Under the pieces are notes generated by a model. That model worked only from the letters and a program-made list of their open reading frames with translations. It was not told where the DNA came from and searched no databases. Of a DNA stretch of 64,000 nt, positions 4,582-63,442 are shown piece after piece. Position 1 is the stretch's first letter; every line of letters begins with the position of its first letter. The DNA comes from a virus. The DNA lies in IMG/VR virus record IMGVR_UViG_3300034069_000021, positions 1 through 64,000 of that record; one strand, 5' to 3'. A program made the position numbers and the translations under genes.

Positions 4582-4607
4582 CATACCCGACTGACTCGGG
4601 CTAGTGT
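4578..4607 (+). promoter_or_regulatory. Promoter-operator cassette (variant -10)
   Basis: TTGACA (4578-4583), TA, palindrome CCCGACTGACTCGGG (4586-4600), then TAGTGT. Confidence 0.65.
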
Positions 4608-4609
4608 CA

Positions 4610-4657
4610 GGTGGTCGGGTCCGGTGACAACACCCAGCGTCATCGGACCCGACCACC
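4610..4657 (+). promoter_or_regulatory. Large perfect hairpin in the helicase leader
   Basis: 14-bp arms GGTGGTCGGGTCCG (4610-4623) / CGGACCCGACCACC (4644-4657) with a 20-nt loop. Confidence 0.6.
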
Positions 4658-4718
4658 ACCTACACCAGCCTCCGCTCCCGCCTCCACCTCCACCTCCACA
4701 CCAGCTAAGGCCCACCAC

Positions 4719-11923: not shown

Positions 11924-11953
11924 TTGACATACCCGACTGACTCGGGTTAGTCT
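11924..11953 (+). promoter_or_regulatory. Promoter-operator cassette at the divergent lysA junction
   Basis: TTGACA (11924-11929), TA, CCCGACTGACTCGGG (11932-11946), then TAGTCT. Leader hairpin GGCGGG/CCCGCC at 11965-11981. Confidence 0.65.
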
Positions 11954-12001
11954 GATCTCATCAAGGCGGGACCGGCCCGCCGAGACTGAGAGGCCAAGAC
12001 C

Positions 12002-12772: not shown

Positions 12773-12789
12773 CCACCAGCCGCCCCGAC

Positions 12790-12815: not shown

Positions 12816-12836
12816 ACCACCACGAAAGGCACGCAG

Positions 12837-13271
12837 ATGACCATTACTGCCGCCGACGCCGCCCCGGCGCGCTCGGCACCCGTCCAGCCCACCGAGCGGT
12901 GCTACGGCCTCGGTGAGCTGATCTACGCCCACCGGACCTACATGGGCATCAGTCAGCGCGCCATGGCGGCGCGGCTGGAGTTCGACCGGCGCGACTACCA
13001 GCGCATCGAGAACGGGCGCAACATGTGCCCCGTCGGGTTCCTGACCAAGGTGACCGAGCTGGTGGACCTGTTCGACGCCACCGCCGACGCCCTGGTGGAT
13101 CAGGCCCGCAAGGCCGGTGGCGTCACCATCCTGATCGACACCGATCCGCGCTGGGAGTGGGAGCGCAACGTGGCCGGGCGCGCGGCGATGTTCGCCCTGA
13201 CGGCTGAGGATCAGCCGCGCGTTACGCTCACGTCCAAGCAGAACCCCACCGACATCAGGAGCCCGCGATGA
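12837..13271 (+). CDS. XRE-type helix-turn-helix DNA-binding protein
   Basis: Internal ATG of ORF 12609-13271. HTH-like segment YMGISQRAMAARLEFDRRDYQRIENG. Confidence 0.7.
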   Translation: MTITAADAAPARSAPVQPTERCYGLGELIYAHRTYMGISQRAMAARLEFDRRDYQRIENGRNMCPVGFLTKVTELVDLFDATADALVDQARKAGGVTILIDTDPRWEWERNVAGRAAMFALTAEDQPRVTLTSKQNPTDIRSPR

Positions 13272-34089: not shown

Positions 34090-34118
34090 TTGACTTACCC
34101 GACTCACTCGGGTAACTT
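34090..34118 (+). promoter_or_regulatory. Promoter-operator cassette
   Basis: TTGACT (34090-34095), TA, CCCGACTCACTCGGG (34098-34112), TAACTT (34113-34118). Leader hairpin at about 34132-34146. Confidence 0.7.
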
Positions 34119-34165
34119 AGTTCTTGTCAGCGCGGGACCGGCCCGCCAGACAGAGAGGCCAGACC

Positions 34166-34429
34166 ATGATCACCACCGCCACCGAGATTGACCGTGAGTT
34201 CCGCGTTGCCATCGCTCACACCGAGGCCAGCACCGCCGAGGTCCGCATGGCCCGCGCCCTGTTCGACGTCAAGGCCCTCGACGCCCGCCCCGATACCGTG
34301 GCCGACGCGCTCAGCGCCGCCGCCCGCCTGGACGCCATGGGCCTGCTGCCCAGCCAGGTTCGCCGCCTGTACGGCAACGGTGGCCAGATGCACGACCTGG
34401 TGACCGAGGCGGTCGCCGCCGTCCGCTGA
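34166..34429 (+). CDS. Small hypothetical protein, antisense-embedded in the virion block
   Basis: 87 aa with its own cassette promoter, a GAGAGG SD and a terminator. Confidence 0.7.
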   Translation: MITTATEIDREFRVAIAHTEASTAEVRMARALFDVKALDARPDTVADALSAAARLDAMGLLPSQVRRLYGNGGQMHDLVTEAVAAVR

Positions 34430-45516: not shown

Positions 45517-45537
45517 CCCGAGTGAGTCGGGTAACAT
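45517..45537 (+). promoter_or_regulatory. Operator plus -10 for a leaderless ruvC-like gene
   Basis: CCCGAGTGAGTCGGG (45517-45531), TAACAT (45532-45537), then CAGGGC and the ATG at 45544. Confidence 0.55.
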
Positions 45538-45543
45538 CAGGGC

Positions 45544-46122
45544 ATGAGAATCCTCGGGGTCGATACCAGCCTCACCGCCACCGGCCTCGCGTTGATCGAC
45601 ATCGCCACCTGGCCCCCGAGTAACCCGCCGAGGCAGCCCGGCGATCCGGTCTCTTACAGCGCCCAGGTGGTCACTGTGGGCGCGCCGAAGCCCACCAAGG
45701 ACAAGACCAAGCAGGCGATGGCGCGGCGCGTGAGAACGCTGCTGAGCGACATCGAGGAGGTGTTCAAGGAGGACCGCCCCGAGCACGTCGGGATGGAGGC
45801 GCTGGCGTACGGGGCGCGCGGTGAGGGCGCATGGGTGCTGCCCTGGATCTTCGGTGAGGTGATCAGCCTGACCGTCGAGTACAGCGTCCCGCTGACCATC
45901 GTGGCCACCAAGGCCCGCGCCAAGTTCGCCACCGGCAACGGCAACGCCGACAAGCAGACCGTGCTGCTGGCGGTGAACAGGCTGGAGCCCGCCGCCGAGG
46001 TGACCAACGACAACGAGGCCGACGCGCTCAGCGTCGGGGCGGTGGTGTGCCAGAAGCTCGGGGTGCCGATCTGGCCGGTGACCGCCTACCGCACCGACGT
46101 CGTGAGCAAGCTCGGGGACTAG
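45544..46122 (+). CDS. RuvC-like Holliday junction resolvase
   Basis: Motifs MRILGVDTSLTATG, GMEALAYG, NEADALSVG. Opposite strand to the flanking terL and portal genes. Confidence 0.8.
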   Translation: MRILGVDTSLTATGLALIDIATWPPSNPPRQPGDPVSYSAQVVTVGAPKPTKDKTKQAMARRVRTLLSDIEEVFKEDRPEHVGMEALAYGARGEGAWVLPWIFGEVISLTVEYSVPLTIVATKARAKFATGNGNADKQTVLLAVNRLEPAAEVTNDNEADALSVGAVVCQKLGVPIWPVTAYRTDVVSKLGD

Positions 46123-47888: not shown

Positions 47889-48464
47889 CTACAGCCGCAG
47901 CTCGGGGACGCCGGTCTTGAGCACCGACAAGATCGGATCAGGGTGACCGCGCACCACGGACACCGCCTTGCCCTGGTAGGCCGGGCCGGTCAGCGTGTCG
48001 GCCAGGTTGCGGCTGGCGCTCAGTCGGCCCTTCACCCAGCTCGGGTTCTGCGTCTTGCCGATGGCCTTGGATCGGACCTTGCGCCAGTCCTCGGCGTCGT
48101 TGTGGTCGAGCAGGACCAGCGTCACCTCGTAGCCGCCCTCCAGCGCGGCGTCGATGAACCGGCGGTTGGCCAGGCGGGCACCCTCGGCCAGCAGCAGCGG
48201 GTACGGCTGGGAGCGGACCCAGGGCGCGGCCTTGTCGATGATGCTGGAGGGGAGCGCGTCGGTGCCCGAGAACAGCTCACGGCGCACGCCCAGCTCAGCG
48301 CCGACTACCTCGCCGGTCACGCGCTCGGTGAGCACGTCGTGCGCCACGGGGTACGCATCGTTCGGCGCGATCTTGTGACGGTCGAACGCCGCCGTCAGCT
48401 TGGACATGAGGGTGCTCTTGCCCGAACCGGGCTGGCCAACGAGGTAGATCAGGCGAGCGGTCAT
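47889..48464 (-). CDS. P-loop NTPase or kinase-like protein
   Basis: Walker A LVGQPGSGKST. Walker B-like TLVLLDHND. Confidence 0.7.
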   Translation of the reverse strand: MTARLIYLVGQPGSGKSTLMSKLTAAFDRHKIAPNDAYPVAHDVLTERVTGEVVGAELGVRRELFSGTDALPSSIIDKAAPWVRSQPYPLLLAEGARLANRRFIDAALEGGYEVTLVLLDHNDAEDWRKVRSKAIGKTQNPSWVKGRLSASRNLADTLTGPAYQGKAVSVVRGHPDPILSVLKTGVPELRL

Positions 48465-48470
48465 GGCCTG

Positions 48471-48491
48471 ATCATACCCGACTGACTCGGG
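48471..48491 (-). promoter_or_regulatory. Operator plus -10 for a leaderless P-loop gene
   Basis: Minus strand reads CCCGAGTCAGTCGGG (48491-48477), TATGAT (48476-48471), then CAGGCC and the ATG at 48464. Confidence 0.55.
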
Positions 48492-50262: not shown

Positions 50263-50283
50263 GGGCGCAGGATACCAGGAGGG

Positions 50284-50312
50284 TTGACTTACCCGACTCA
50301 CTCGGGTAACTT
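50284..50312 (+). promoter_or_regulatory. Promoter-operator cassette at the major divergent junction
   Basis: TTGACT (50284-50289), TA, CCCGACTCACTCGGG (50292-50306), TAACTT (50307-50312). No leader hairpin. Confidence 0.65.
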
Positions 50313-50408
50313 GGTGCTCGGAGCCGGTGACGGGGGCGGTACCAGGGGTGGACGTTTATTCGCGGGTCTACCTGCAAAAACTAGTCAAAATTCGTCCTTG
50401 TGGTTCGC

Positions 50409-50437
50409 TTGACATACCCGACTGACTCGGGTAACTT
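50409..50437 (+). promoter_or_regulatory. Promoter-operator cassette
   Basis: TTGACA (50409-50414), palindrome at 50417-50431, TAACTT (50432-50437). Leader hairpin 50449-50465. SD AAGGAGAG. Confidence 0.75.
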
Positions 50438-50489
50438 AGTTGATGTGAGGCGGGGCCGACCCGCCGACAACAACCCAAGGAGAGACACC

Positions 50490-51098
50490 ATGGCCACCAT
50501 CACCTTCACCGCCCAGATCCCCGGCACCGAGAACAGCCCGGTCACCCGCACCTCAGGAACCATGCCCTACGTGGCCACGGTCGAGGGCGTCACCTGGCAC
50601 AAGACGTTCGCCGCCGCCTACGCCGCCGCCAAGGGACGCCAGCACGCCCCCGGTGCCAAGGTCTACCCGGTGGTCCCGACCGCCATCAACGGCAAGATCG
50701 ACGGCACCGAGTTCACGGAAGGCTGGGGTGACATCCCCGCCGAGGCGTTCACCGAGCTGGTCGCGGCCAAGCTGGCCCCGAAGGCCAAGAAGGCCAAGGC
50801 CACCGCCCAGATCGAACTGCCGACCGAGGTGGAGCCCGCCGCCGAGCCCGAGGCCGAGATCGTCACCGAGACCGAAGCCCCCGAGGCTGACGTCCAGGCC
50901 GAGGCTGAGACCGAGGGCGCGGTGCCCGAGCCCGCCCCGGTGGCCGACGACGCCGACGCCAAGAAGGCCGCTCGCCGCGCCCGCCGGGCCGAGCGTCGGC
51001 TGGCCAAGCGCGCCACCGAGTCCCCCGAGGACAAGGCCGCGCGTCTCCAGGCCCGCCGTGAGCGCCGCGCCGCCCGCAAGGCCGCTGCGGCTGAGTGA
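50490..51098 (+). CDS. Hypothetical protein with highly basic Lys/Arg/Ala-rich C-terminus
   Basis: Internal ATG 50490 downstream of the cassette and SD. Tail motif KAKKAKAT..KKAARRARRAERRLAKR. Confidence 0.7.
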   Translation: MATITFTAQIPGTENSPVTRTSGTMPYVATVEGVTWHKTFAAAYAAAKGRQHAPGAKVYPVVPTAINGKIDGTEFTEGWGDIPAEAFTELVAAKLAPKAKKAKATAQIELPTEVEPAAEPEAEIVTETEAPEADVQAEAETEGAVPEPAPVADDADAKKAARRARRAERRLAKRATESPEDKAARLQARRERRAARKAAAAE

Positions 51099-51103
51099 GC
51101 CCG

Positions 51104-51140
51104 AGCGCCCCGGCCAGGTGAATAGCCTGGTCGGGGCGCT
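51104..51140 (+). terminator. Terminator hairpin abutting the next promoter
   Basis: 15-bp arms AGCGCCCCGGCCAGG / CCTGGTCGGGGCGCT (one G-T pair). The 3' end touches the TTGACA at 51140. Confidence 0.6.
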
Positions 51141-51168
51141 TGACATACCCGAGTCAGTCGGGTAACTT
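51140..51168 (+). promoter_or_regulatory. Promoter-operator cassette
   Basis: TTGACA, TA, CCCGAGTCAGTCGGG (51148-51162), TAACTT (51163-51168). Leader hairpin 51180-51196. Confidence 0.75.
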
Positions 51169-51217
51169 GGTTCTTGTGAGGCGGGGCCGACCCGCCGATA
51201 CCGACAGGAGAGACACC

Positions 51218-51538
51218 ATGACCGTGACCAACGGCCTCCCCACCGCCTCGGCGGTCAGCCGCGCCATCCGCCGCGACTTCCAGATCATCAGCCAGCCGAT
51301 CCACAAAGGCGGGTACGTGGTCCGGCGCGGGAACGGGCGTCAGATCGCCGCCAACATCTGGGTCGCGGTCAGCGACCTCGACTCGGCCAACGTCCGCAAG
51401 GCAGGCCAGCTGGCCGAGATCATGCGCGCCGCTGGCTACGACATCCACCACGTCGATGGGTCGACCATCATCTACGTCCACTCGATCCCGAGCGCCGCCG
51501 ACGCCGCGCCCAAGATCGCCGCCTACCTGGAGAGCTGA
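51218..51538 (+). CDS. Hypothetical protein
   Basis: 106 aa. ATG preceded by GGAGAGA. Confidence 0.7.
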   Translation: MTVTNGLPTASAVSRAIRRDFQIISQPIHKGGYVVRRGNGRQIAANIWVAVSDLDSANVRKAGQLAEIMRAAGYDIHHVDGSTIIYVHSIPSAADAAPKIAAYLES

Positions 51539-51540
51539 CC

Positions 51541-51723
51541 ATGGACACCGAGACCGACCTGACGTTCGATGACTGCCTGACCTGGGCCGAGTGGTGGGAC
51601 GAGTTCCACGCGAACGCCTGCTGCCCGAACAGCTCGGTCGCCGCTGCCCGCCTGTGCGGGTGCGGCGGCTCGGGTGAGCTGCCCAGCGGCGTCAGCCGCC
51701 TCCTGATCGGAGACCCCGAGTGA
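51541..51723 (+). CDS. Small Cys-rich hypothetical protein
   Basis: 60-aa ORF, tightly packed against its neighbours. Confidence 0.6.
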   Translation: MDTETDLTFDDCLTWAEWWDEFHANACCPNSSVAAARLCGCGGSGELPSGVSRLLIGDPE

Positions 51724-51869
51724 AGGGCATCCCCGCCGACCCGGCCCAGGCCGAGGCCCGGCGGGAGCGCGCCCGCGCCGAGCTGGCCCGCTGGAAGCGC
51801 CCAATCGACAGCCTGGAGGCGTGGGACGCCTTCGAGCGCCTGACAGGAATTGCGGAGGGAACAGAGTGA
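51720..51869 (+). CDS. Small hypothetical protein (49 aa, below ORF-track cutoff)
   Basis: GTGA overlaps at both ends link the neighbouring genes. High GC3. Confidence 0.5.
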   Translation: MKGIPADPAQAEARRERARAELARWKRPIDSLEAWDAFERLTGIAEGTE

Positions 51870-52228
51870 AGTGGACCAGGCCCGAGCCGGGCGAGTACAC
51901 CGCCGGGCCGTACAAGATCACCAGGTGGATGAGCGCCAAGGGCTCGGGAACCCCGTGGTTCGTGGACGGGCCGGGCGTGCAGATCGGCTGGCACGCCACC
52001 AAGGACGACGCCCAGGCTGAGGCCGAGGACGCCGCCCTGATGCGGATTACCGAGGAGACCAAGTACAGCGTCGAGCCGGTGGTGGGCGATTGGGCTTACC
52101 TGGGCGAATACCTCCAGGTCACCGCCGTGTTCAACGCGGGGACCGGGCCGTCGACCTACTCGCTTCGCACGGCGCGCGGCAAGCGGAAGTGCCTGCGGCG
52201 CTACGAGTTCCCGCTGGTGATCCGGTGA
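51866..52228 (+). CDS. Hypothetical protein
   Basis: GTG 51866 (internal to ORF 51821-52228). Confidence 0.6.
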   Translation: MKWTRPEPGEYTAGPYKITRWMSAKGSGTPWFVDGPGVQIGWHATKDDAQAEAEDAALMRITEETKYSVEPVVGDWAYLGEYLQVTAVFNAGTGPSTYSLRTARGKRKCLRRYEFPLVIR

Positions 52229-52377
52229 TCGCCCTGGTGGTGCTGGCCCTGGTCGGATGCCTCCTGGTGGCCAGCGCGCCCGACCGCTCCGCGTGGAGCT
52301 ACATCGGGGCCAGCCTGGCCCTGGGCGGGTTCCTGGCCATCCCCGTGTTCATCGGGCTCGGCATCATTTCCGTCTAA
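52225..52377 (+). CDS. Small two-helix membrane protein (50 aa)
   Basis: GTGA overlap start. Sequence VIALVVLALVGCLLVA..ASLALGGFLAIPVFIGLGII. Confidence 0.55.
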   Translation: MIALVVLALVGCLLVASAPDRSAWSYIGASLALGGFLAIPVFIGLGIISV

Positions 52378-52395
52378 ATTCCCTGCTAGCAGCGC

Positions 52396-52424
52396 TTGAC
52401 ATACCCGACTGACTCGGGTAACTT
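52396..52424 (+). promoter_or_regulatory. Promoter-operator cassette
   Basis: TTGACA (52396-52401), palindrome 52404-52418, TAACTT (52419-52424). Leader hairpin 52436-52452. Confidence 0.75.
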
Positions 52425-52476
52425 AGTTCTTGTCAGGCGGGGCCGTCCCGCCGATACCGACCCAGAGGAGACCACC

Positions 52477-53514
52477 ATGGCCCACGAACTCGACACCACA
52501 AACGGCGTGACCAGCTTCGCCGACTCCGAGGCCCGCGCCGACGGAACCGTGAGCGCCTGGCACCGGCTCGGCCAGGCCGTCGGTCACACCATGACCGCCG
52601 ACGAGGCCCTGGACGCCGCCCACATGCGCGGCTGGGACGTCCGCAAGGAGGCCCTGGTGGCCCAGGTCGGTGACCTGATGCTCCCGGTGCCCGACCGGTT
52701 CGCGGTCGTCCGCACGAACCCCGTCACCGCCGCCCCTGAGGCGCTGGGCGTGGTCGGTGACCGGTGGACCCCGTTCCAGAACGAGGAGACCACCGAGCTG
52801 CTGAGCGAGATCACCGACGAGGGCGGCGCGCACATCGAGACCATCGGCGCGCTGCGCGGTGGCCGGGACACGTTCGTCACGATGAAGATGCCCGCCCACA
52901 TGGAGTTCCGTTCGCCGGTCACGGGTGAGCTGGACACCACGGATCTCTACATCTCGATCCTGAACAACCACTCGGGCGAGGCCAGCCTGCGGGCGCTGAT
53001 CAGCCCGGTGCGGATCGTGTGCGCGAACACCCAGCGCATGGCCGAGGGCTCGGCGCGGTCCATGGTGGCGCTGCGCCACACGGGCAGCCCGAAGGCCCGG
53101 CTGGCCGAGGTGCGCCAGCTGCTGGGCCTGACGTTCGCCTACCGGGACACGTTCGTTGAGCAGTGCGAGCGGCTGATCGCGCGGGAGATGTCCGACGCCG
53201 AGGTTCTGGAGAGCCTGGAGGGCGTCTGGGGCGTCGGCGGGGCCACCACCGAGAAGCAGGCCGAGGCCCGCAAGGCCAAGGCCCTGGAGGTCTTCGAGGT
53301 CTACGCCAGCGACGTCACCGTGGCGGCGTTCAAGGGCACCGCGTTCGGGGCCTACAACGCCGGGACGCGCTACCTGGACCACGTGGCCCCGGTCAACCTG
53401 AGCGCCGACGCCACCGACGAGGAGCGGGCCATCCGCCGCGCTCAGCGGACGCTGATGTCCGATAGCCTCGGTCAGCTCAAGGGCCAGCTGTTCTCGGCCC
53501 TGCTGCCCGCCTAG
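52477..53514 (+). CDS. DUF932-family protein
   Basis: 345 aa. Motif ALISPVRIVCANTQ is typical of DUF932 (phage/plasmid-like) proteins. Confidence 0.7.
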   Translation: MAHELDTTNGVTSFADSEARADGTVSAWHRLGQAVGHTMTADEALDAAHMRGWDVRKEALVAQVGDLMLPVPDRFAVVRTNPVTAAPEALGVVGDRWTPFQNEETTELLSEITDEGGAHIETIGALRGGRDTFVTMKMPAHMEFRSPVTGELDTTDLYISILNNHSGEASLRALISPVRIVCANTQRMAEGSARSMVALRHTGSPKARLAEVRQLLGLTFAYRDTFVEQCERLIAREMSDAEVLESLEGVWGVGGATTEKQAEARKAKALEVFEVYASDVTVAAFKGTAFGAYNAGTRYLDHVAPVNLSADATDEERAIRRAQRTLMSDSLGQLKGQLFSALLPA

Positions 53515-53525
53515 CGGGTAGACCG

Positions 53526-53553
53526 GCCCGCCTGGTGGGGATGCCAGGCGGGC
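53526..53553 (+). terminator. Terminator hairpin
   Basis: 10-bp stem GCCCGCCTGG / CCAGGCGGGC. Confidence 0.55.
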
Positions 53554-53657
53554 TCGGTGAGCGCCGGGAGGTAAAGGCCGATCTGGGCTCTGCGCGCAAC
53601 CTGGGTCGAGAAGCTGCCGCCCGGCGCTCTCCAAGCCAAAATTGCCGGTCATCCATG

Positions 53658-53686
53658 TTGACATACCCGACTAACTCGGGTAACTT
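53658..53686 (+). promoter_or_regulatory. Promoter-operator cassette (one central mismatch)
   Basis: TTGACA (53658-53663), CCCGACTAACTCGGG (53666-53680), TAACTT. Leader hairpin 53698-53714. Confidence 0.7.
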
Positions 53687-53729
53687 AGTTCTTGTGAGGC
53701 GGGGCCGTCCCGCCGACAGAGAGGCCAAA

Positions 53730-54023
53730 ATGACCACCACCATCGGACACATGACCAAGGGCGTCGAGCTTGACCTGTTCGCGGCCACCGACGCCAACGT
53801 GCTCGACGGCATGATCCGCGCTCAGGGCGCGCTCGGCCAGATCACCTGGACCAAGATCAGCGAGACCGTGGCCTTCGGTCAGTTCACCGAGATCGTGACC
53901 GATCACGACGACGCCACCGAGCGCCCCGTGACCCGCGAGGAGACCCGCCGGGTGGTCGTGCTCGACGTCGACAACGCTGACGTGAAGACCGCCGTGGAGG
54001 CGGCGTTCTGGGTCAACGTCTAA
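53730..54023 (+). CDS. Hypothetical protein
   Basis: 97 aa from the internal ATG downstream of the cassette. Confidence 0.7.
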   Translation: MTTTIGHMTKGVELDLFAATDANVLDGMIRAQGALGQITWTKISETVAFGQFTEIVTDHDDATERPVTREETRRVVVLDVDNADVKTAVEAAFWVNV

Positions 54024-54030
54024 CCAGACC

Positions 54031-54063
54031 GGCCCGCCGGGTTCAGCCCGAGCCCGGCGGGCC
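54031..54063 (+). terminator. Terminator or attenuator hairpin
   Basis: 11-bp stem GGCCCGCCGGG / CCCGGCGGGCC. Confidence 0.55.
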
Positions 54064-54113
54064 ACCTACCGCCACCAGATACCCCGCCAGCACCTACCCA
54101 GAGAGACCAGACC

Positions 54114-55049
54114 ATGAAGACCCTGCTCACCGCCGCCGCCTGCGCGGCCACTGTCGCCGCCCTGGTGACGCCCACCGCGCTCGCTGCGGCCAAGACCGAC
54201 GTCGTGTTCATCGGCGGCACCGGTACCGGCATGAAGCTCACCGAGGTGTTCGGAACGGGCGGGAGCCCGACCGGGCTGACCGATCCGTTCGTCACCGACC
54301 GCGACCAGCTGGAGGTGCCGATCTACGACGGCGCGCCCTGGGCGAACCCTCAGGCCAGCGTGCCGTTCGTGGCCCAGGCCGTGGCCAAGACCGACGACCC
54401 CACCGTGGTGATCGGCCTCAGCAAGGGCGCTCAGGTGACCCATGGCGTGGAGGCCCAGGACACGCGCACCGACACGCGCTACGTGGTGATCGGTGACCCC
54501 GACTCGGACCACGGCATCAGCCGCGCGTTCGGGCTCAGCCCGGCCCAGACCGTGAAGACCCACGACTGGGAGGAGATCGTGGCTGAGCGGGACGCTGTGG
54601 GCGATTTCCCCGACCGCCCGTGGAACCTGCTCGCGACGGCGGAATCGTTGGCCAGCTGGGCCGTGGTCCACCCGCAGTACGGCGCGGGCGGCGACGGCGA
54701 CCCGCTGACCCGGCTGGACGAGGCCGAGGTGACCGAGACCAAGAACCCCAACGGCACCACGTTCACCAAGCGCGTGATCCCGGTGCGGGAGCTGAGCCTG
54801 CTCAAGCCGATGCGCGACACCGAGCGCACGCTGACCGGCCAGGACCGGCTGACCGACGAGGTAGAACGCCACCTCAAGCCCATGGTCGACGCTGGCTGGA
54901 GCCGCAACGACGCGAAGCCCGCCAAGACCACCAAGACCGACGCGGACGACAAGCCCGCCAAGGAGAGCAAGACCACCACCGCCAAGGAGACCAAGGCCGA
55001 CCGGGCCGAGGCTCGCACCACCAAGAAGGAGAGCAGCACCGATGAGTGA
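54114..55049 (+). CDS. Secreted PE-PPE-like / alpha-beta serine hydrolase
   Basis: Signal peptide MKTLLTAAACAATVAALVTPTALAAA. Motifs VFIGGTGTG, GxSxG (GLSKG) and VIGDPDSDHGISRAF. Lys/Thr-rich tail. Confidence 0.6.
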   Translation: MKTLLTAAACAATVAALVTPTALAAAKTDVVFIGGTGTGMKLTEVFGTGGSPTGLTDPFVTDRDQLEVPIYDGAPWANPQASVPFVAQAVAKTDDPTVVIGLSKGAQVTHGVEAQDTRTDTRYVVIGDPDSDHGISRAFGLSPAQTVKTHDWEEIVAERDAVGDFPDRPWNLLATAESLASWAVVHPQYGAGGDGDPLTRLDEAEVTETKNPNGTTFTKRVIPVRELSLLKPMRDTERTLTGQDRLTDEVERHLKPMVDAGWSRNDAKPAKTTKTDADDKPAKESKTTTAKETKADRAEARTTKKESSTDE

Positions 55050-55707
55050 TTACGACGACGAGCGGGCACAGGCCAGCCTGGAGTCCGACGAGGCCGAGCT
55101 GGCCACCGCGCCCTCGGAGGGCGTGACCAGCGTGCCGCCCAGCGCCGCGTACCTGCGCCAGGAGGCCGCGCGCCTGCTGGAGCTGGCCGGTGAGCGTGAG
55201 CGCGCCGAGGCCCGCGCGCTGCTGCTGGCCCGCGAGGCCGCTCGGCCCAAGATGCCCGAGGTCGGTGAAGGCCCCGCCTACGTGATCTTCCGCCGGTACC
55301 AGTCGGGGCGGGAGTACGGCTACGCCGCCGTCGGCTGGCGCGAGGGCCGGTCGGTGCGCTGGGCCGTGACCGGCTCGGAGACCCGCCGGTTCAACTGGCC
55401 GGGCCTGCTGGAGTTCATCGGGGAGGCCAACTGGCCGACGCTGTGGACCGTCACCGCTGGCGAACGCCTCGGCCCCGAGCCCGGCGCGGAGCCGCCGACC
55501 GCTGAGGTGATGGGGCGGTACGGGCGCGTGGAGCGAACCGAGACCGTCGGCGCGGTGGACCACGACCCGTTCGCGGGGATGCTCATCGTCGGCCTGGGCG
55601 GCGGTGGCCGGGCGACCGGCCCGTTCGACCGGAGCCCGCACGCGCCTCAGGGCGGGTACGCCTCGGGCGGGCGGGTTCACCCCGAGTCCGAGCCGAACCG
55701 GTGGTGA
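55042..55707 (+). CDS. Hypothetical protein
   Basis: 221-aa ORF with an 8-nt overlap with the previous gene. Confidence 0.65.
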   Translation: MSDYDDERAQASLESDEAELATAPSEGVTSVPPSAAYLRQEAARLLELAGERERAEARALLLAREAARPKMPEVGEGPAYVIFRRYQSGREYGYAAVGWREGRSVRWAVTGSETRRFNWPGLLEFIGEANWPTLWTVTAGERLGPEPGAEPPTAEVMGRYGRVERTETVGAVDHDPFAGMLIVGLGGGGRATGPFDRSPHAPQGGYASGGRVHPESEPNRW

Positions 55708-55925
55708 GCCCGCGCGAGGAGGTCGGGCTGCCCAAGTACCCCGACGTCGAGGTAGAGCTGCTGGGCCAGGACGGGAACGGGTTCCTGATCGTGTCCAGGG
55801 TCCAGCGCGCTCTGCGCCAGGCGGGCGTGCCCGCCGACGAGGTGACCGCCTACGTCAACGAGGCCACCGACGGCGACTACGACAACCTGCTGGCCGTGAC
55901 CGGCCAGTGGATCACCATCCGCTGA
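55701..55925 (+). CDS. Hypothetical protein
   Basis: 74-aa ORF (alternative GTG at 55704). Confidence 0.6.
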   Translation: MVSPREEVGLPKYPDVEVELLGQDGNGFLIVSRVQRALRQAGVPADEVTAYVNEATDGDYDNLLAVTGQWITIR

Positions 55926-55931
55926 TTGACC

Positions 55932-55963
55932 GAGGGCGGGCCGGGGACACCTGGCCCGCCCTC
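55932..55963 (+). terminator. Terminator or attenuator hairpin
   Basis: 11-bp stem GAGGGCGGGCC / GGCCCGCCCTC. Confidence 0.55.
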
Positions 55964-55980
55964 ACTGATTGGAGACCACC

Positions 55981-56178
55981 ATGGACCCGAACGCCACACT
56001 GTCCGAGCTTCGCGCCCTGTGCGCTCGCGTGCAGGCCGAACAGCGCCTCAGCCAGGCCGACGTAGAGCGCGGCGCTGAGCTGTTCACGGCGCTCGATGAG
56101 TGGCTGTGCCGGGACGGCTTCTTGCCGACCGACTGGAGCTACCTGGACACCGACGGCGCGATCAGCCCGCCACGATGA
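55981..56178 (+). CDS. Hypothetical protein
   Basis: ATG after a GGAGACCACC SD. 65 aa. Confidence 0.6.
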   Translation: MDPNATLSELRALCARVQAEQRLSQADVERGAELFTALDEWLCRDGFLPTDWSYLDTDGAISPPR

Positions 56179-56381
56179 GCCGTGAGCTTCTGCTGCCGCT
56201 GGAGCTGACCCGACCGCCGCGCTGCCCCGGCTCGGGTGAGTGGCCCCACCGGAACTACAAGGGCCGGGCCGAGTGCCAGATATGCGGGAAGCGGTTCGCG
56301 CCCAAGCTGGACGGGCGCGTCCGTCGGCACCCCGCTCAGATCAAGTATTTGCCGGTCAGGGTTGTTGACATACCCGACTGA
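56175..56381 (+). CDS. Small zinc-ribbon-like protein
   Basis: ATGA overlap start. Motif CPGSG..CQICGK. Its stop TGA lies inside the next operator palindrome. Confidence 0.6.
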   Translation: MSRELLLPLELTRPPRCPGSGEWPHRNYKGRAECQICGKRFAPKLDGRVRRHPAQIKYLPVRVVDIPD

Positions 56382-56393
56382 CTCGGGTAACTT
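56365..56393 (+). promoter_or_regulatory. Promoter-operator cassette
   Basis: TTGACA (56365-56370), palindrome 56373-56387, TAACTT (56388-56393). Leader hairpin about 56407-56421. Confidence 0.7.
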
Positions 56394-56442
56394 GATTCAA
56401 GTCAGCGCGGGACCGCCCCGCCAGACAGAGAGGAGACCTCAC

Positions 56443-56664
56443 ATGGTCACCATCGAGATCACCACCACCAGCACCACCGAGTACGACGGTGATTTCGAGT
56501 GGATCATCACCGACCTCCTGAACGGTCAGTTCCGTGTGGAGGTCGCGCACCACGGAGTGTGGTTCGCCAAGGGCATCGCCCCGAGCTACACGCGGGCGCA
56601 GTACACCGCTGGCCTGTTCATCGGGCAGCACATGCGCGCCGAGGCCATGGCGGCGGCGCTATGA
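56443..56664 (+). CDS. Hypothetical protein
   Basis: 73 aa. AGGAGA SD. Confidence 0.65.
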   Translation: MVTIEITTTSTTEYDGDFEWIITDLLNGQFRVEVAHHGVWFAKGIAPSYTRAQYTAGLFIGQHMRAEAMAAAL

Positions 56665-56957
56665 CCGTCACGCCGCCTCAGCCCGGCTCGGGCAAGTCAC
56701 GCCGATGCAACGGCCACAAAGACACGCGCCTCCTGCTGGAGGCCGTGGAGGCGGCTGGCGGTGAGTGCGTCCCCCACGGGCGCACGCGCCCTGGCCACTG
56801 GAAGGTCTACCTCGACGGGAAGATGATCGGAGGAATCAGCGGCACCCCGTCAGACCACCGCACCCGCAAGAACGACATCGCCCGGCTCCGCAGGAACGGG
56901 CTCAACATCACCTCGAAGGGAACCTACGATGGGGCTGCTCCCCAAGATCGACCTTGA
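56661..56957 (+). CDS. Hypothetical protein (weak HicA-like pattern)
   Basis: ATGA overlap start. Segment LLEAVEAAG..GHWKVYLDG..ISGTPSD..IARLRRNG. Confidence 0.55.
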   Translation: MTVTPPQPGSGKSRRCNGHKDTRLLLEAVEAAGGECVPHGRTRPGHWKVYLDGKMIGGISGTPSDHRTRKNDIARLRRNGLNITSKGTYDGAAPQDRP

Positions 56958-57201
56958 CATCGCGCACACGGTGGGCGAGTTCCTGGGCCTGCTCAAGGAC
57001 ATGAACCAGAAGCTCGACACGTTGATCGGCCTCCAGCGCCAGGCGGTGGCCGAGCCCGTGTGCGGTGCGTGCGACCAGATCGGGCGGCTCCACTGCCCCG
57101 AGCATGGCCAGCCGGGGTTCATCGACCAGCGCGACACCCCGTGGCGAGGCCGGTCAGCGCCGCTGCCGTACCCCGACCTCACCGAGGGCGGCACGCGATG
57201 A
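56929..57201 (+). CDS. Hypothetical protein
   Basis: 90 aa. GAAGGGAA SD. 29-nt overlap with the previous gene. Confidence 0.55.
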   Translation: MGLLPKIDLDIAHTVGEFLGLLKDMNQKLDTLIGLQRQAVAEPVCGACDQIGRLHCPEHGQPGFIDQRDTPWRGRSAPLPYPDLTEGGTR

Positions 57202-57683
57202 GCTTCTGGGTGGAGGCGCGCCGCGTCCTGTGCTGGTGGTTCGGCATGTGGCTGTTCTGCCGCTTCGCTGAGTACGTGCTGGGCTACCCCGACGACGTGA
57301 CCGACTGGAGCTGGACCGAGGCGTTCGTGGTCGCGGCGGTGCTGGTGGGCTACGACGCCTGGCGGGCCGGTCGCCCGACCGAGCGGCGTCACTTCGACGT
57401 GCGCGAGACGACCATCCCCGTGGTCGGCCTGGACCCTGGCACCGAGGTCAGCGTGAGCGTGGTCGCCTACCGCGAGCACTGGTTCCGGCCTGACTCGGTG
57501 ACCGAGCCGCTGGCGAAGGCGTTCCTCACCGAGCCGCCGGGGCGGATGAAGCTGGCCGTCACGCACGACCTGGTGACCGTCCACGACGAGTACGGGCGGT
57601 TCATCCTGAGCGCCCCGAACCCCGAGCACCGCACCGGCCCGCGCATGAGCGTGGCGCTGCTGATCCAGCAGGTGATGGCGTGA
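57198..57683 (+). CDS. Membrane protein
   Basis: ATGA overlap start. N-terminal hydrophobic helices. Confidence 0.6.
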   Translation: MSFWVEARRVLCWWFGMWLFCRFAEYVLGYPDDVTDWSWTEAFVVAAVLVGYDAWRAGRPTERRHFDVRETTIPVVGLDPGTEVSVSVVAYREHWFRPDSVTEPLAKAFLTEPPGRMKLAVTHDLVTVHDEYGRFILSAPNPEHRTGPRMSVALLIQQVMA

Positions 57684-58021
57684 CCGCCCGCCGACGCGTC
57701 GAGCACGTGTTCCAGCTGTTCGCCGCCGGGGCCAAGGTGGTCGAGGATCCGCCGTTGCTCCACTACGTGCTCGGTGATCGGCGCGCGGTCGTGGTCAACC
57801 TCCCCGCCCGCCTGGTGTTCCGCGAGGGCGGTCGGCCTCGGTACGCCCACGGCCTGGGCAACACGCACCACGAACTGCGCGACCACCCGATGGCCCCGCG
57901 TGAGGGGTTCGTCCTGCTTGACTGCGACGACTGGACCGGGGCCTCACCCGAGGGCGAGACCTGGTGGTTCAAGCGCGACCCCAACCATGCCCGTCAGCAG
58001 ACCGAGGAGGCCCGGCGATGA
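57680..58021 (+). CDS. Hypothetical protein
   Basis: 113-aa ORF with a GTGA overlap start. Confidence 0.6.
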   Translation: MTARRRVEHVFQLFAAGAKVVEDPPLLHYVLGDRRAVVVNLPARLVFREGGRPRYAHGLGNTHHELRDHPMAPREGFVLLDCDDWTGASPEGETWWFKRDPNHARQQTEEARR

Positions 58022-58290
58022 CGCTCCCCCGTTCGTGCGGCTACTGCGCCGAACAGCGCGACGTGTTGACCGTGTTCGGCGAGGAGCTGGACCCGACCAT
58101 GGACCAGATGATCGAAGCCTGGCACGACAACAATCACCCCGGCCCCGGCCCGTTCCTGGCCGATCCCGGCTGGTATCACCCCAACGGCCAGGGCGACGGC
58201 GTTCTGCTCAGGGACGTGACGCTGGCCCCGAGTGAGGTTATCTGCGCGGAATGCCACCTGGTCCACCGACCTGGGACGGAGTGCCCGTGA
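58018..58290 (+). CDS. Cys-containing hypothetical protein
   Basis: ATGA overlap start. Motifs CGYC..CAEC. Confidence 0.6.
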   Translation: MTLPRSCGYCAEQRDVLTVFGEELDPTMDQMIEAWHDNNHPGPGPFLADPGWYHPNGQGDGVLLRDVTLAPSEVICAECHLVHRPGTECP

Positions 58291-58547
58291 CCGGCCATGC
58301 CGCCCCGCCAGGCGTCGAGCCGTTCATCGACGGCCTGCCGGGCGTCAGCGCCGAGGTGATCTCCGATGCCTGGGTGAACCTGGCCCAGGAGGACCACTAC
58401 GAGGGCCGTCACCGCCGCCCGCGCCCGACCCTGATGCCTGACGGGATGGTGTACGTGACCGAGGACGGCTACGTGTACCGGATCGACGGCGAGTACCCCG
58501 ACGAGTGCATTGCCCGCCCACCGTGTGAGGTTGACTTACCCGACTGA
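58287..58547 (+). CDS. Hypothetical protein
   Basis: GTGA overlap start. Its stop TGA lies inside the next operator palindrome. Confidence 0.55.
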   Translation: MTGHAAPPGVEPFIDGLPGVSAEVISDAWVNLAQEDHYEGRHRRPRPTLMPDGMVYVTEDGYVYRIDGEYPDECIARPPCEVDLPD

Positions 58548-58559
58548 CTCGGGTAACTT
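58531..58559 (+). promoter_or_regulatory. Promoter-operator cassette
   Basis: TTGACT (58531-58536), palindrome 58539-58553, TAACTT (58554-58559). Leader hairpin 58571-58586. Confidence 0.7.
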
Positions 58560-58606
58560 AGTTCCTGTGAGGCGGGGCCGACCGCCACTGACCGAGGGAG
58601 ACCACA

Positions 58607-58753
58607 ATGTCCAAAGCCGCCGCCAAGCGTGAGCTGATGGCCCTGGTGGGCAGCGTCAAGCCGTGGGAGACGTTCACCGAGGCCCAGCAGGCCGAGGTTG
58701 ACCGGCTCAAGGCCATCGCGTTCCCCAACGGCATCCCCCTGCCGAGGATCTGA
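58607..58753 (+). CDS. Small hypothetical protein (48 aa, below ORF-track cutoff)
   Basis: ATG after a GGGAGACCACA SD. Ends in a TGATG overlap with the next gene. Confidence 0.55.
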   Translation: MSKAAAKRELMALVGSVKPWETFTEAQQAEVDRLKAIAFPNGIPLPRI

Positions 58754-62634: not shown

Positions 62635-63157
62635 CAGGGCCTGGATCCGCGAGCCGGGGTACCGGGTCGGGCTCGGGGATGGGGACTTCCTCGACGTCGA
62701 TGGGTCGTGAGGCATGGGTCAGCTCCTTGAGGGTGTCGGCGTCCTTGGTGGTGATGCTCTCGATGAGGCGTGCGGCCTCGTTGGCGAAGTCCTCGGCGCT
62801 GACGGCGGCGAGCACTCGGGTCGGGCTGTCCAGGCCCAGCAGGTTGGCCTCACGGTGGAGGGCTCGGAGGATGACCATGGCGGCGTCCTTGTCGCCCCGC
62901 ATCATGGCCGGGTAGTTGGCCCGCTGGATGTCGAAGATGACGGCGCGGTGACGGGCCACCACCTGGCTCGGCTGCTCGTTGTTGATGTCCCGCTGGACGA
63001 TGGCCATGTCCTTCCGGCACGTGGCCACGCTGACGCCGACCTGAGCGGCGATCTGCGCCCAGGTGGCCCCGGCGTTCTTGAGGTACATCACCTTGGTCCG
63101 ACGGGCCAGCAGCTCCTCGTTGATCAAGCTGCTGAGGTCGTCATCGCTAACGGTCAT
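62459..63157 (-). CDS. HTH DNA-binding protein with small-terminase-like architecture
   Basis: N-terminal HTH GATWAQIAAQVGVSVATCRKDM followed by a helical region ending REANLLGLDSP. Acidic, Pro-rich tail with lower GC3 that overlaps the next gene. Confidence 0.55.
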   Translation of the reverse strand: MTVSDDDLSSLINEELLARRTKVMYLKNAGATWAQIAAQVGVSVATCRKDMAIVQRDINNEQPSQVVARHRAVIFDIQRANYPAMMRGDKDAAMVILRALHREANLLGLDSPTRVLAAVSAEDFANEAARLIESITTKDADTLKELTHASRPIDVEEVPIPEPDPVPRLADPGPDGQAASVAGEPDGASADGARPGPGAPGGPAPDSPERPTRVPGQAGLPDLPDDDGWSNL

Positions 63158-63181
63158 GGTCAGAGCCTACGCCAAGGGGTA

Positions 63182-63442
63182 TCAAGTGTTACCCGACTCA
63201 CTCGGGGGCTGCTCGGGCTCGGGGTACCAGGCGCTGGTCCCGCAGTCCATGCAGCCCAGGTACTCACCCCGGTCAGAGTGAGCGCGCAGCTCCTCCAGCG
63301 CCGCCTGAGCCGCGCCGAAGTCGGCGGCATCGGCCACGATGACGATCCGGCTCCTGTTGCCGGGGTAGAAGCACGCGGTGGCCCGGTCCACCTGGGCGCG
63401 CACCACCTGGCTGTTATCAACGTCGATCACGCGGACGGTCAC
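63182..63442 (-). CDS. Hypothetical protein
   Basis: GTG 63442 after a GGAGAGCGGAG SD. 86 aa. Its stop abuts the operator. Confidence 0.55.
   Translation of the reverse strand: MTVRVIDVDNSQVVRAQVDRATACFYPGNRSRIVIVADAADFGAAQAALEELRAHSDRGEYLGCMDCGTSAWYPEPEQPPSESGNT
63186..63206 (-). promoter_or_regulatory. Operator-only copy upstream of the HTH gene
   Basis: Minus strand reads CCCGAGTGAGTCGGG (63206-63192) then TAACAC (63191-63186). No TTGACA. 28-nt leader to the ATG at 63157. Confidence 0.45.

Follow-up and report, generated by a model that had tools for sequence, protein, structure and literature searches.

Near-identical promoter-like cassettes with a palindromic spacer and a leader hairpin head most plus-strand transcription units of a Subcluster B6 mycobacteriophage

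The window analysed here, the whole 64,000-nt stretch of viral DNA, belongs to a Subcluster B6 mycobacteriophage in reverse-complemented, circularly permuted form and is ~98.5% identical to Julie1. Most + strand transcription units of this mycobacterial virus are headed by a near-identical cassette of ~85 bases. All ten full copies are oriented along the + strand, toward non-structural genes, and the units that carry them are the leftward replication and small-gene blocks of the Julie1 annotation. Each gene block named in the preliminary description has a copy upstream of it, as checked by position. Mapping onto Julie1 also bears out that the copies stay outside well-supported coding sequence: each either lies between genes or overlaps just the 3' end of the gene before it, which in gp47, gp79 and gp86 means the stop or the final codons and in gp65 the final ~4-9 codons. 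For nine of the ten full copies a start codon follows 36-112 nt downstream, and seven cassettes lie in tandem on one strand. The features are as follows.

4578..4721, + strand: promoter variant, TTGACA-TA-CCCGACTGACTCGGG-C-TAGTGT, 18-nt spacer; leader with a 19-bp-stem hairpin (~4610-4657), then a C/A-rich stretch and the helicase ATG at 4719
11924..12004, + strand: cassette with TTGACA, 18-nt spacer and -10 box TAGTCT; hairpin 11965-11981; ATG 12002
12837..13271, + strand: candidate regulator, a 144-aa Xre/Cro-CI-type HTH protein
34090..34168, + strand: full cassette; hairpin 34131-34147; ATG 34166
45517..45546, + strand: copy lacking a -35 box; 15-mer, TAACAT, 6 nt, RuvC-like ATG 45544; leaderless spacing
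48462..48491, - strand: copy lacking a -35 box; 15-mer, TATGAT, caggcc, small terminase ATG 48464; leaderless spacing
50284..50312, + strand: promoter of the full 29 bp, with neither leader hairpin nor an ORF of its own
50409..50492, + strand: full cassette; hairpin 50449-50465; ATG 50490
51140..51220, + strand: full cassette with flipped core GTCAG; hairpin 51180-51196; ATG 51218
52396..52479, + strand: full cassette; hairpin 52436-52452; ATG 52477
53658..53732, + strand: full cassette with core CTAAC; hairpin 53698-53714; ATG 53730
56365..56445, + strand: full cassette; hairpin 56406-56422, a CGCGGG variant; ATG 56443
58531..58609, + strand: full cassette; hairpin 58571-58586; ATG 58607
63155..63206, - strand: copy lacking a -35 box; 15-mer, TAACAC (an imperfect -10 box), 28 nt, ATG 63157 of a protein annotated 'RNase E'; inside the final ~4-9 codons of the preceding ORF

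Thirteen 15-mers, all reported on the + strand, had been listed previously and every one was recovered at its position. The pattern CCCGA(S)T(N)A(S)TCGGG occurs 13 times in the window against 0.12 expected by chance. TTGACW-17/18 nt-TANNNT promoters enclose 10 of these 13 copies, and the 29-mer TTGACW-TA-15-mer-TAACTT has nine matches at three or fewer mismatches against 0 expected. An exact 17-nt separation of the two boxes and an almost invariant element ending in TAACTT had been claimed; the spacing holds for eight of the ten full copies, but the 4578 and 11924 copies have 18 nt and replace TAACTT with TAGTGT and TAGTCT, respectively. TAACTT matches the E. coli -10 consensus at 3 of 6 positions, and a generic promoter scan called none of the cassette sites. 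The inverted repeat, described as 15 bp, does have an operator-like dyad symmetry, but its real extent is 19 bp (TACCCGA-NNNNN-TCGGGTA), the terminal TA at the same time opening the -10 hexamer. It is a quasi-palindrome, in which the bases at positions 6 and 10 are identical in every copy (C..C or G..G). Similarly, the 29-bp element stands as a core but not as the full unit. The repeat spans ~85 bp: it begins 0-4 nt 5' of the -35 box, or up to ~19 nt for some pairs of copies, and ends just beyond the start codon. Paralogous cassettes align over this length at 78-89% identity.

The palindrome behaves as one unit, its core flipping orientation among copies and among orthologues with the -35 and -10 boxes remaining fixed. 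Orthologous sites switch among four core states, the same ones that occur elsewhere in the genome; the 53658 core is CTAAC here and GTGAG in the Julie1 orthologue. The high copy-to-copy identity could owe much to gene conversion instead of selection. Between the window and its B6 orthologues in Hosp, 39HC and KayaCho, conservation is 0.99 at the -35 box, the palindrome arms and the -10 box, 0.93 in the hairpin and ~0.75 in the flanks; the stretch spanning the -35 and -10 boxes is 99-100% identical against ~75% beside it. This conservation of the spacer far exceeds what RNA polymerase requires.

The 11924 cassette heads genes 12002-13465, an Xre-type HTH gene among them, and the 34090 cassette has a single target, a lone 87-aa DUF7185 gene lying antisense inside the structural operon. 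The 50284 promoter is 96 nt 5' of the next cassette and divergent from a ParB-like gene (49453-50262); on the minus strand, its palindrome covers the place where a putative promoter, TATCCT-6 nt-ATG, would have its -35 box.

The three copies lacking a -35 box had been taken for bare operators. This does not hold, as a TA-initial hexamer, oriented toward the adjacent gene, directly follows each of them. In B6 such a copy places TANNNT 6-7 nt before the start codon of RuvC and of the small terminase gene, and the same geometry is seen for RuvC in B4 and B1 and, in KayaCho and Cooper, where the replication operon begins; the RuvC layout of the 45517 copy recurs in KayaCho, Cooper and Oline. The leaderless geometry at 48462..48491 belongs to a gene of the structural strand. 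The phage-wide regulon first proposed can be kept as a genome-wide set of predicted sigma-70/SigA-type promoters heading non-structural units, but since -35-less promoters lie at RuvC and the small terminase gene, the set is not confined to 'early and accessory' genes.

An 81-nt cassette query matched 310 phage records, every one a Mycobacterium phage, with 8-11 places per genome among the B6 and B1 genomes listed. The cassette architecture is present in B1 Oline (14 copies), B4 Cooper, B3 Pipefish and B2 Rosebush, and the promoter slot holds perfect palindromes in a metagenomic relative too. The leader hairpin is common to B1, B2, B3, B4 and B6, whereas the palindrome is subcluster-specific: B1 has a weak and B3 a partial one, and B2 lacks it. 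The exact 19-mer has only 8 occurrences in 185,579 bacterial species genomes and was not found in M. smegmatis, which argues against a host regulon.

No part of the cassette is conserved more widely than the leader hairpin. Eight copies carry GGCGGG-N5-CCCGCC ~11 nt after the -10 box, followed by the ribosome site and the ATG. The minimum-free-energy fold contains this hairpin in all eight leaders, with modest individual z-scores (-0.6 to -2.8); the hairpin of the 4578 copy folds at -42 kcal/mol (z -8.2), and that of the 58531 cassette has a 5-bp stem owing to a 1-nt deletion. Among 49 instances from five subclusters, 29 have the stem exactly 11 nt from the -10 box and 40 have it at 10-12 nt, and the arms are 5 bp apart in 46, the exceptions being loops of 3 nt in two Oline copies and 6 nt in one Pipefish copy. 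Compensatory changes occur at 3 of the 6 pairs and two G-U pairs are found on the sense strand; the figure of 99% paired is partly by construction, because the filter with which the set was gathered required pairing. The spacing between the stem and the predicted 5' end is fixed, though the intervening sequence varies by subcluster. Its own sequence is near-invariant over ~50 copies in the five subclusters, which suggests that the hairpin may be recognised sequence-specifically as well as structurally.

Four HTH proteins had been put forward as binders of the palindrome. One of them, 12837-13271, passes the Pfam threshold (HTH_31, 29.6 bits; cut-off 27), but the others do not: 60626-61306 and 62459-63157 give just sub-threshold HTH_23 matches, and a Pfam search with 13268-13465 returned no match. 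The Xre-type protein 12837-13271 is the only solid candidate regulator. It matches phrog_955 and, weakly, a 434-repressor-like chain, and its own operon is driven by the predicted promoter of the 11924 cassette. Orthologues occur in B1-B4 and B6, with a recognition helix well conserved in all five subclusters, and a preprint has predicted the B1 orthologue to be a repressor. Since the helix is conserved across five subclusters and the palindrome is subcluster-specific, the Xre protein reading the palindrome fits poorly.

We propose, at about an even chance of being right, that each cassette is a SigA-type promoter, with a spacer that serves a phage-encoded dimeric regulator as its operator and a hairpin that acts as a 5'-terminal mRNA element. 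The sequence of the repeat, where it is placed, how it is conserved and its capacity to pair are seen directly, and from them we infer promoter activity, start sites, protein binding, the sign of regulation (repression) and the role of the hairpin. The cassettes would be the phage's own promoters for host RNA polymerase (SigA/sigma-70-type), reiterated as an expression unit of ~85 bp. Host polymerase would read TTGACW and a TANNNT -10 box 17-18 nt further downstream, with transcription predicted to start ~7 nt beyond the -10 box. The quasi-palindrome of 15-19 bp that fills the whole spacer would be the operator, the likeliest binder being the Xre-type protein, and a dimer with its centre near -20 would leave polymerase no room to bind. 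Repression would shut all cassette promoters together, and with them the promoters that lack a -35 box, namely those of RuvC, the small terminase gene and the 62459-63157 gene. Eight transcripts would start with a GC-rich hairpin within ~4-5 nt, followed by a Shine-Dalgarno sequence and ATG, and this 5'-terminal stem-loop would stabilise each mRNA or mark the mRNAs for a common factor. One repressor over replication genes and the small terminase gives no simple early-to-late switch. The searchable literature yielded no transcript, start-site or binding data for Cluster B phages; a 2023 preprint reports many strong predicted promoters in B1 phages and describes neither palindrome nor hairpin. 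The cassette design seems never before to have been described in detail.

The spacer could instead be a promoter-intrinsic element with no dedicated regulator, which we regard as unlikely. A CCCGAC box by the -35 and a CGGG box in the role of an extended -10 would suffice, the copies being kept near-identical by concerted evolution through gene conversion among ~15 cassettes and the dyad symmetry being incidental or kept by hairpin-mediated conversion. CCCGAC or GCCGCC does follow the -35 box in B1-B4 and B6, (G/T)CGGG precedes the -10 box also at -35-less promoters (Oline terS, ...gtCGGG-TAACAT), and the two halves of the spacer behave separately across subclusters. Switching of orthologous sites among shared core states would be expected from inter-copy conversion, and the ~85-bp alignability of paralogous cassettes also favours it. 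However, in B6, in B4 and in the metagenomic relative one arm is complementary to the other over 5-7 bp, and the element is used in either orientation, which is hard to explain by two independent strand-specific boxes. Constraint on the spacer sequence is, moreover, not normally known for SigA promoters.

It is rather more doubtful that the leader hairpin is itself a DNA operator, GGCGGG-N5-CCCGCC at ~+12 to +28, bound by the cluster-wide Xre protein, with the spacer palindrome a second, lineage-specific site. Recognition helix and arms are both kept in all five subclusters examined, and the near-constant 5-bp arm spacing would suit such a site. Yet loops of 3 and 6 nt occur, the two sense-strand G-U pairs would be A-C on the opposite strand, and the stem keeps its distance from the predicted 5' end despite differing intervening sequence; RNA structure suits these features better than a DNA operator.

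Binding of the palindrome by another protein, or a positive action, appears improbable. KorB of plasmid RK2, a member of the ParB family, regulates globally through a dozen or so palindromic sites, and the ParB-like protein 49453-50262 might act likewise: full-length homologues occur in B4, B5 and B6, the palindromes being well formed in B4 and B6; B2 and B3 share the N-terminal domain alone, and no B1 phage was among the matches listed, which sample the 265 matching records. The 50292 palindrome also adjoins the putative promoter of the ParB-like gene. Against this, Pfam and PDB searches gave no match supporting a DNA-binding domain, and the half-sites of B1, for which those matches include no ParB-like gene, are recognisable and B4-like. 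An activator could substitute for the -35 contact at the three copies that are promoter-like despite having no -35 box, but a site near -20 in a 17-nt spacer is typical of repressors, not activators.

Least probable is an RNA hairpin that ends or pauses upstream read-through and makes the cassette a terminator-plus-promoter insulator: a simple terminator scan flagged spacer hairpins at 51146, 52402 and 53664 (7-bp stem, 5-nt loop, tail ACTTAGTTCT; fold ~-13 kcal/mol, z -2.0) and the seven-cassette tandem would suit insulation, but the short stem has just 4 G-C pairs, the tail is no U-tract, B1, B3 and B2 cassettes share the layout with little or no spacer hairpin, and the 45517 and 11924 copies lie in divergent intergenic regions with no upstream transcript on the same strand.

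The operator-plus-hairpin reading has partial parallels. Cluster O mycobacteriophages have strongly predicted SigA-like promoters and ~34 copies of a 17-bp palindrome, TGTTCGGNNNCCGAACA, scattered between and inside genes and, as described, outside promoter spacers (PMC4351075). Shared with the present case are the host range, the many copies of a short invariant inverted repeat, its asymmetric centre in both orientations and predicted SigA-like promoters, some of leaderless geometry. Here, in contrast, every copy fills the -35/-10 spacer or abuts the -10 box, the repeat sequence is unrelated and most copies are tied to a conserved leader hairpin. Cluster A stoperators are asymmetric sites of 13-14 bp that all face one way with respect to transcription and block elongation; just one of them overlaps a promoter (PMC9262239). 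They resemble the present repeat as a short motif found many times genome-wide, mostly in short intergenic gaps, with one proposed genome-wide regulator, but the repeat here has dyad symmetry, takes both orientations and is always inside a promoter.

In the Streptomyces phage phiC31, the phage repressor binds conserved inverted repeats (CIRs) at many intergenic sites, binding is experimentally demonstrated and the early promoters are not known to be sigma-70-like. The idea is similar, namely one phage repressor with many near-identical palindromic operators by actinophage early promoters, but the promoters here are of the canonical -35/-10 type and repressor binding is proposed.

The hairpin has parallels of its own. 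Stem-loops at the 5' end stabilise mRNA in the E. coli ompA leader and in B. subtilis mRNAs protected from RNase J; these serve single genes, and structure alone is known to matter. The cassette hairpin is likewise stable, a few nt from the predicted 5' end and upstream of the ribosome site, with its position relative to that end stricter than the linker sequence, but its stem sequence is almost invariant. In Cluster K, start-associated sequences (SAS/ESAS) also place a conserved motif and an imperfect inverted repeat just 5' of many start codons; the SAS overlaps the ribosome site and, unlike the motif here, is not known to be tied to a -35/-10 promoter. T4-type phages carry reiterated intergenic modules of a sigma-70 early promoter and a stem-loop among small variable genes, linked to gene shuffling, in which the stem-loop precedes the promoter and terminates the upstream unit; these PeSL (promoter-early stem-loop) cassettes were reportedly described by Arbiol, Comeau and Krisch in 2010. 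The present modules are similarly reiterated and intergenic in small-gene regions, but the conserved hairpin is downstream of the promoter, in the 5' leader. Evidence of gene shuffling is thin here, amounting to about two breakpoints; one homology breakpoint relative to Hosp and KayaCho stops 2-6 nt short of the 58531 cassette.

All thirteen 15-mers of the form CCCGA(S)T(N)A(S)TCGGG reported in the preliminary description were found at the positions claimed, against 0.12 expected by chance. With the Julie1 annotation mapped onto the sequence, each copy is either intergenic or lies only over the 3' end of the upstream gene, as had been claimed. Ten carry a -35 box, TTGACA or TTGACT (starting at 4578, 11924, 34090, 50284, 50409, 51140, 52396, 53658, 56365 and 58531), and those at 45517, 48477 and 63192 do not. 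The almost invariant full consensus holds for nine 29-mers (0 expected); the copies at 4578 and 11924 deviate from it, their -10 box being one base farther away. A separation of exactly 17 nt between the boxes had been proposed, and this is right for the eight copies with TAACTT but not for two others, in which TAGTGT or TAGTCT stands at 18 nt. The arms of the inverted repeat are present, although its symmetry extends over 19 bp rather than 15, TACCCGA...TCGGGTA, with the TA common to the -10 box.

The -10 box has the mycobacterial TANNNT form and lies 17 or 18 nt after the -35 box, inside the 16-18 nt range of SigA/sigma-70 promoters. A generic promoter scan did not call the cassette promoters because their -10 box is only 3/6 like the E. 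coli TATAAT. The repeat in eight copies continues past TAACTT through about 11 nt (often AGTTCTTGTSA), a GC-rich hairpin and a GA-rich ribosome site to an ATG. Paralogous copies align over ~85 bp at 78-89% identity; the alignable stretch opens 0-4 nt (in some pairs up to ~19 nt) ahead of the -35 box and closes just beyond the ATG. A SigF-type -10 box (GGGTAA resembling GGGTAT) was weighed by eye and rejected: B4 reads GGGTTA, a -35 box of GTTT type is absent, and all subclusters keep TANNNT. An UP-like box, AAATTSCCNG, occurs at 52376-52385 and 53639-53648 (+), 11-12 nt before two -35 boxes, and similar boxes are present in Cooper and Oline; the motif was set aside, with four occurrences found window-wide vs six expected, not above chance.

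Nucleotide matches identify the window as a Subcluster B6 mycobacteriophage, reverse-complemented and circularly permuted, since Julie1 (Jolie1) matches 50000-58600 at 98.4% identity on the opposite strand, up to its own last base; Julie1 1-20265 corresponds to 30000-50300 at 98.7%. Circular permutation has been published for these genomes (PMC3585329), and Julie1, Hosp, 39HC, 40BC and KayaCho are B6 members (PMC6392294). The ends of the Julie1 record join at 50263/50264, the window assembly having another start point and the opposite orientation, as expected if the genome is circularly permuted. On the + strand are the 'leftward' non-structural genes (DNA polymerase/primase, helicase, exonuclease, RuvC and a long run of small right-arm genes), and on the minus strand the structural and lysis genes and gp60-71.

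An 81-nt cassette query matched 310 phage records, all of Mycobacterium phages, with 8-11 places per B6 or B1 genome among the matches listed. Cassettes were read directly in B1 Oline (14 copies), B4 Cooper, B3 Pipefish, B2 Rosebush and four other B6 genomes, and number 8-16 per genome scanned. The cassette is real, ordered and common to Cluster B.

The preliminary description took the three copies without a -35 box to be bare operators. This does not hold, as each precedes a -10-like hexamer facing the adjacent gene, and in sequence they look like promoters.

Copies of the 15-mer without a -35 box
45517, + strand: 15-mer, TAACAT, 6 nt, RuvC ATG (45544)
48477, minus strand: 15-mer, TATGAT, caggcc, small terminase ATG (48464)
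63192, minus strand: 15-mer, TAACAC, 28-nt leader, gene 62459-63157

The -10 box, 6-7 nt, start codon arrangement recurs at RuvC in Cooper and Oline, and KayaCho and Cooper have it again where the replication operon begins; the equivalent replication-head position in Julie1, Hosp and 39HC, outside the window, has the palindrome followed by C-TAGTNT. A distance of 6-7 nt from -10 box to start codon is what would be expected of mycobacterial leaderless transcripts. The 6-nt spacing at 45544 and 48464 lends indirect support to a predicted start ~7 nt downstream of the -10 box and to use by the host polymerase. Similar leaderless promoters have been described in Cluster O phages (PMC4351075). Leaderless spacing is also seen at the gene for a ParB-like protein (49453-50262, minus), as TATCCT, 6 nt (gcgccc) and ATG. 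The palindrome at 50292 covers the -35 position of this putative minus-strand promoter (50230-50306), so the 'orphan' 50284 cassette may control the ParB-like gene too.

The sequence of the cassette, its placement, its conservation and its pairing are established, whereas its activity as a promoter, the positions of its starts, protein binding, whether regulation is negative or positive, and the role of the hairpin are inferred. We propose that the copies would be SigA-type promoters read by the host polymerase; that the spacer would be an operator, at which a phage dimeric regulator would block polymerase; and that the leader hairpin would form a 5'-terminal stem-loop, stabilising or tagging each mRNA.

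The palindrome fills the spacer from about -27 to -13, overlapping the polymerase contact region. Its dyad symmetry falls in the ~14-20 bp range typical of operators for dimeric HTH repressors, with arms TACCCGA/TCGGGTA and 6/7 inner positions paired. Compared across subclusters, the spacer palindrome is lineage-specific.

Spacer sequences by subcluster
B6: CCCGA(S)T(N)A(S)TCGGG
B4: CCCGCCTTAGTCGGG, or the same sequence exactly reverse-complemented
B1: degenerate versions only, e.g. ACCGACTTAGGCGGG
B3: CCCGAC beside the -35 box, little symmetry
B2: a different sequence, with the -35 box GAGACA

B6 orthologues agree at 99-100% between the -35 and -10 boxes, apart from positions 6, 8 and 10 of the 15-mer, and at ~75% in the flanks. 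Positions 6 and 10 hold the same base at 74/74 sites in five B6 genomes, and the core at these sites has four states: CTGAC, CTCAC, GTCAG and GTGAG. The state often differs between orthologous sites (at 53666, CTAAC in the window vs GTGAG in Julie1), and the core also flips in B4, while the -35 and -10 boxes never move. Such flipping suggests that the site would work in either orientation; we read the flips as small hairpin-mediated inversions with gene conversion among copies. The arrangement differs from the Cluster A stoperator, which is asymmetric, 13-14 bp long and held in one orientation, whereas here there is dyad symmetry and the core occurs in both orientations relative to a single direction of transcription. 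In the related metagenomic phage contig IMGVR_UViG_3300005614_000205, which has only ~10% of its length in common with B6 at ~80% identity, the same slot of the same cassette (1234-1248, 4190-4204) holds the perfect palindromes CCCGACTGAGTCGGG and CCCGACTGCGTCGGG. Because of these the conserved mismatch would not be essential, and the notion that the site must never be a perfect palindrome was discarded as a functional rule and treated as lineage history. One rival to an operator is a promoter-intrinsic element, whose copies would have been homogenised by gene conversion.

The leader hairpin, with consensus GGCGGG-N5-CCCGCC, is the most conserved module of the cassette. In 49 instances from five subclusters, most of them gathered with a filter demanding pairing, the arms GGCGGG/CCCGCC occur in 43 and a 5-nt loop in 46; in 40 the -10 box and the stem are 10-12 nt apart, though the linker sequence varies by subcluster. 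It is present in the minimum-free-energy fold of 8/8 leaders (total energies -12.7 to -16.8 kcal/mol). Compensatory changes affect 3/6 pairs (G-C to A-U three times, G-C to C-G twice), again mostly in pairing-filtered instances, and two G-U pairs stand in the sense-strand stem of a 42-sequence alignment in which one Rosebush loop was shortened by one base to hold register. If transcription starts ~7 nt after the -10 box, the hairpin would begin near +4 or +5; several leaders have their opening UGU paired with an ACA beyond the stem. Rfam at its gathering threshold gave no family anywhere in the window. An alternative to a stem-loop in RNA is that the leader hairpin would itself be a DNA operator.

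A second promoter type (KayaCho 54978, Cooper 55847, Oline 55236) has TTGACG or TTGCGA, ~17 nt, and TATAAC or TATATC. Near the head of the replication operon, outside the window, it carries the same leader hairpin with no palindrome, so the two modules are separable. A distinct structure is found at 4608-4721 (+), where the promoter at 4578 is followed, 1-3 nt past its -10 box, by a perfect hairpin with a 19-bp stem (-42 kcal/mol, z -8.2), followed by a C/A-rich leader to the helicase ATG at 4719. Oline (B1) and Cooper (B4) have equally long hairpins of unrelated sequence in the same place (z -6.3 and -5.7), so structure is kept at the helicase leader and sequence is not.

A further alternative is that a different protein, or an activator, occupies the palindrome. 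Four HTH proteins had been put forward, and only that at 12837-13271, the candidate regulator, passes a Pfam threshold (HTH_31, 29.6 bits vs a cut-off of 27); it also weakly matches a 434-repressor-like chain, and its B1 orthologue was predicted to be an XRE-family repressor (bioRxiv 10.1101/2023.05.30.542743). The recognition helix of this Xre protein is conserved in all five subclusters and does not vary with palindrome type. Such conservation counts against the Xre protein as palindrome binder, and would suit the hairpin arms, which do not vary, better than the palindrome, which does. By analogy with KorB, an alternative candidate is the ParB-like protein at 49453-50262, whose full-length homologues among the matches listed come only from B4, B5 and B6. 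The proteins at 60626-61306 and 62459-63157 gave sub-threshold HTH_23 Pfam signals only, and were rejected as paralogous regulators, having no detectable mutual similarity. The latter (minus strand) has only a weak N-terminal HTH_23/HTH_24 signal. Its 'RNase E' label in related records finds no support in Pfam or PDB sequence searches and looks unfounded, and the protein was dropped as a candidate hairpin nuclease.

Another rival is a terminator-plus-promoter insulator. In a lenient scan for terminators three of the thirteen copies qualify, on a stem of 7 bp and a T-rich tail that is interrupted. An uninterrupted U run is absent, and the terminator-like feature is absent from B1, B2 and B3 cassettes. 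A host regulon is unlikely and was rejected, because 185,579 bacterial species genomes contain the exact 19-mer only eight times and M. smegmatis has no match, the sole Mycolicibacterium match being one perfect palindrome without promoter boxes around it.

In the furthest-reaching reading, an operator at every promoter would let a single Xre-type repressor silence the whole genome. We think it improbable that the full form of this scheme is correct, namely that (i) one Xre repressor acts through one operator at every promoter, including the leaderless small terminase and RuvC promoters; (ii) the hairpin gives a phage protein a second, post-transcriptional handle on all early mRNAs; and (iii) the cassette is a self-contained module that spreads by gene conversion, has its core flipped by hairpin-mediated inversion and seeds gene replacement. 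If true, whole-genome silencing would lead to unstable, plasmid-like lysogeny, of which there are anecdotal reports in B1 and B6 phages, supposedly lytic and integrase-less. Unstable lysogeny has been reported for B1 phages (bioRxiv 10.1101/2023.05.30.542743).

Sequence comparison hints that cassettes mark boundaries of gene replacements. A PeSL-type mobile cassette would be a repeated promoter and stem-loop module placed where genes are gained, lost or replaced; here the module repeats over ~85 bp, and only two such events were seen (one breakpoint at a cassette edge, one differing gene). Against Hosp and KayaCho, homology is lost at 58290 and returns 2-6 nt before the 58531 cassette (58290/58529), and the KayaCho gene after the 53658 cassette differs (53537-54026).

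The cassette is best seen as a variant among the reiterated promoter or operator cassettes known from phages, the closest described analogue being the 17-bp palindrome of Cluster O (PMC4351075). A literature search that did not extend to the older Hatfull reviews found no description of the palindrome or hairpin, and no transcript data, transcription map or regulatory model for Cluster B phages. At least ten top-scoring predicted SigA-like promoters were reported in the B1 right arm, with no mention of spacer or leader conservation (bioRxiv 10.1101/2023.05.30.542743). Cluster B is the second largest mycobacteriophage group, with more than 350 genomes (PMC9262239), and the ~85-bp cassette would offer an immediate, testable map of its transcription units, in which control of the entire non-structural programme would probably lie with a single DNA site and a single RNA hairpin. 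For mycobacterial genetics and engineered therapeutic phages it may serve as an expression unit that is compact, probably strong and perhaps open to switching. A repressor that covered all promoters would bear on the claimed integrase-free persistence of some Cluster B phages.

The map would also correct several start-codon annotations. For the Julie1 gp17 orthologue, RefSeq puts the start within a cassette leader (34124-34166, +), probably too far upstream; the ATG at 34166, behind the ribosome site, gives an 87-aa protein spanning the entire DUF7185 profile. The start of Cooper RuvC looks mis-set likewise.

At 60433-60455 (+), ~150 nt beyond the end of the + strand right-arm block, at its convergence with the minus-strand genes, a hairpin with a 10-bp stem is followed by TTTCTGGT and is a likely terminator. 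Long alternating purine-pyrimidine tracts (GCGCGCACGCGCGC...) lie upstream of KayaCho gp59, Cooper gp61, Oline gp65 and Rosebush gp60. Seen in these relatives just outside the window, they are kept in the intergenic region from which the replication operon and the gp60-71 block diverge, and may point to an origin or to late control.
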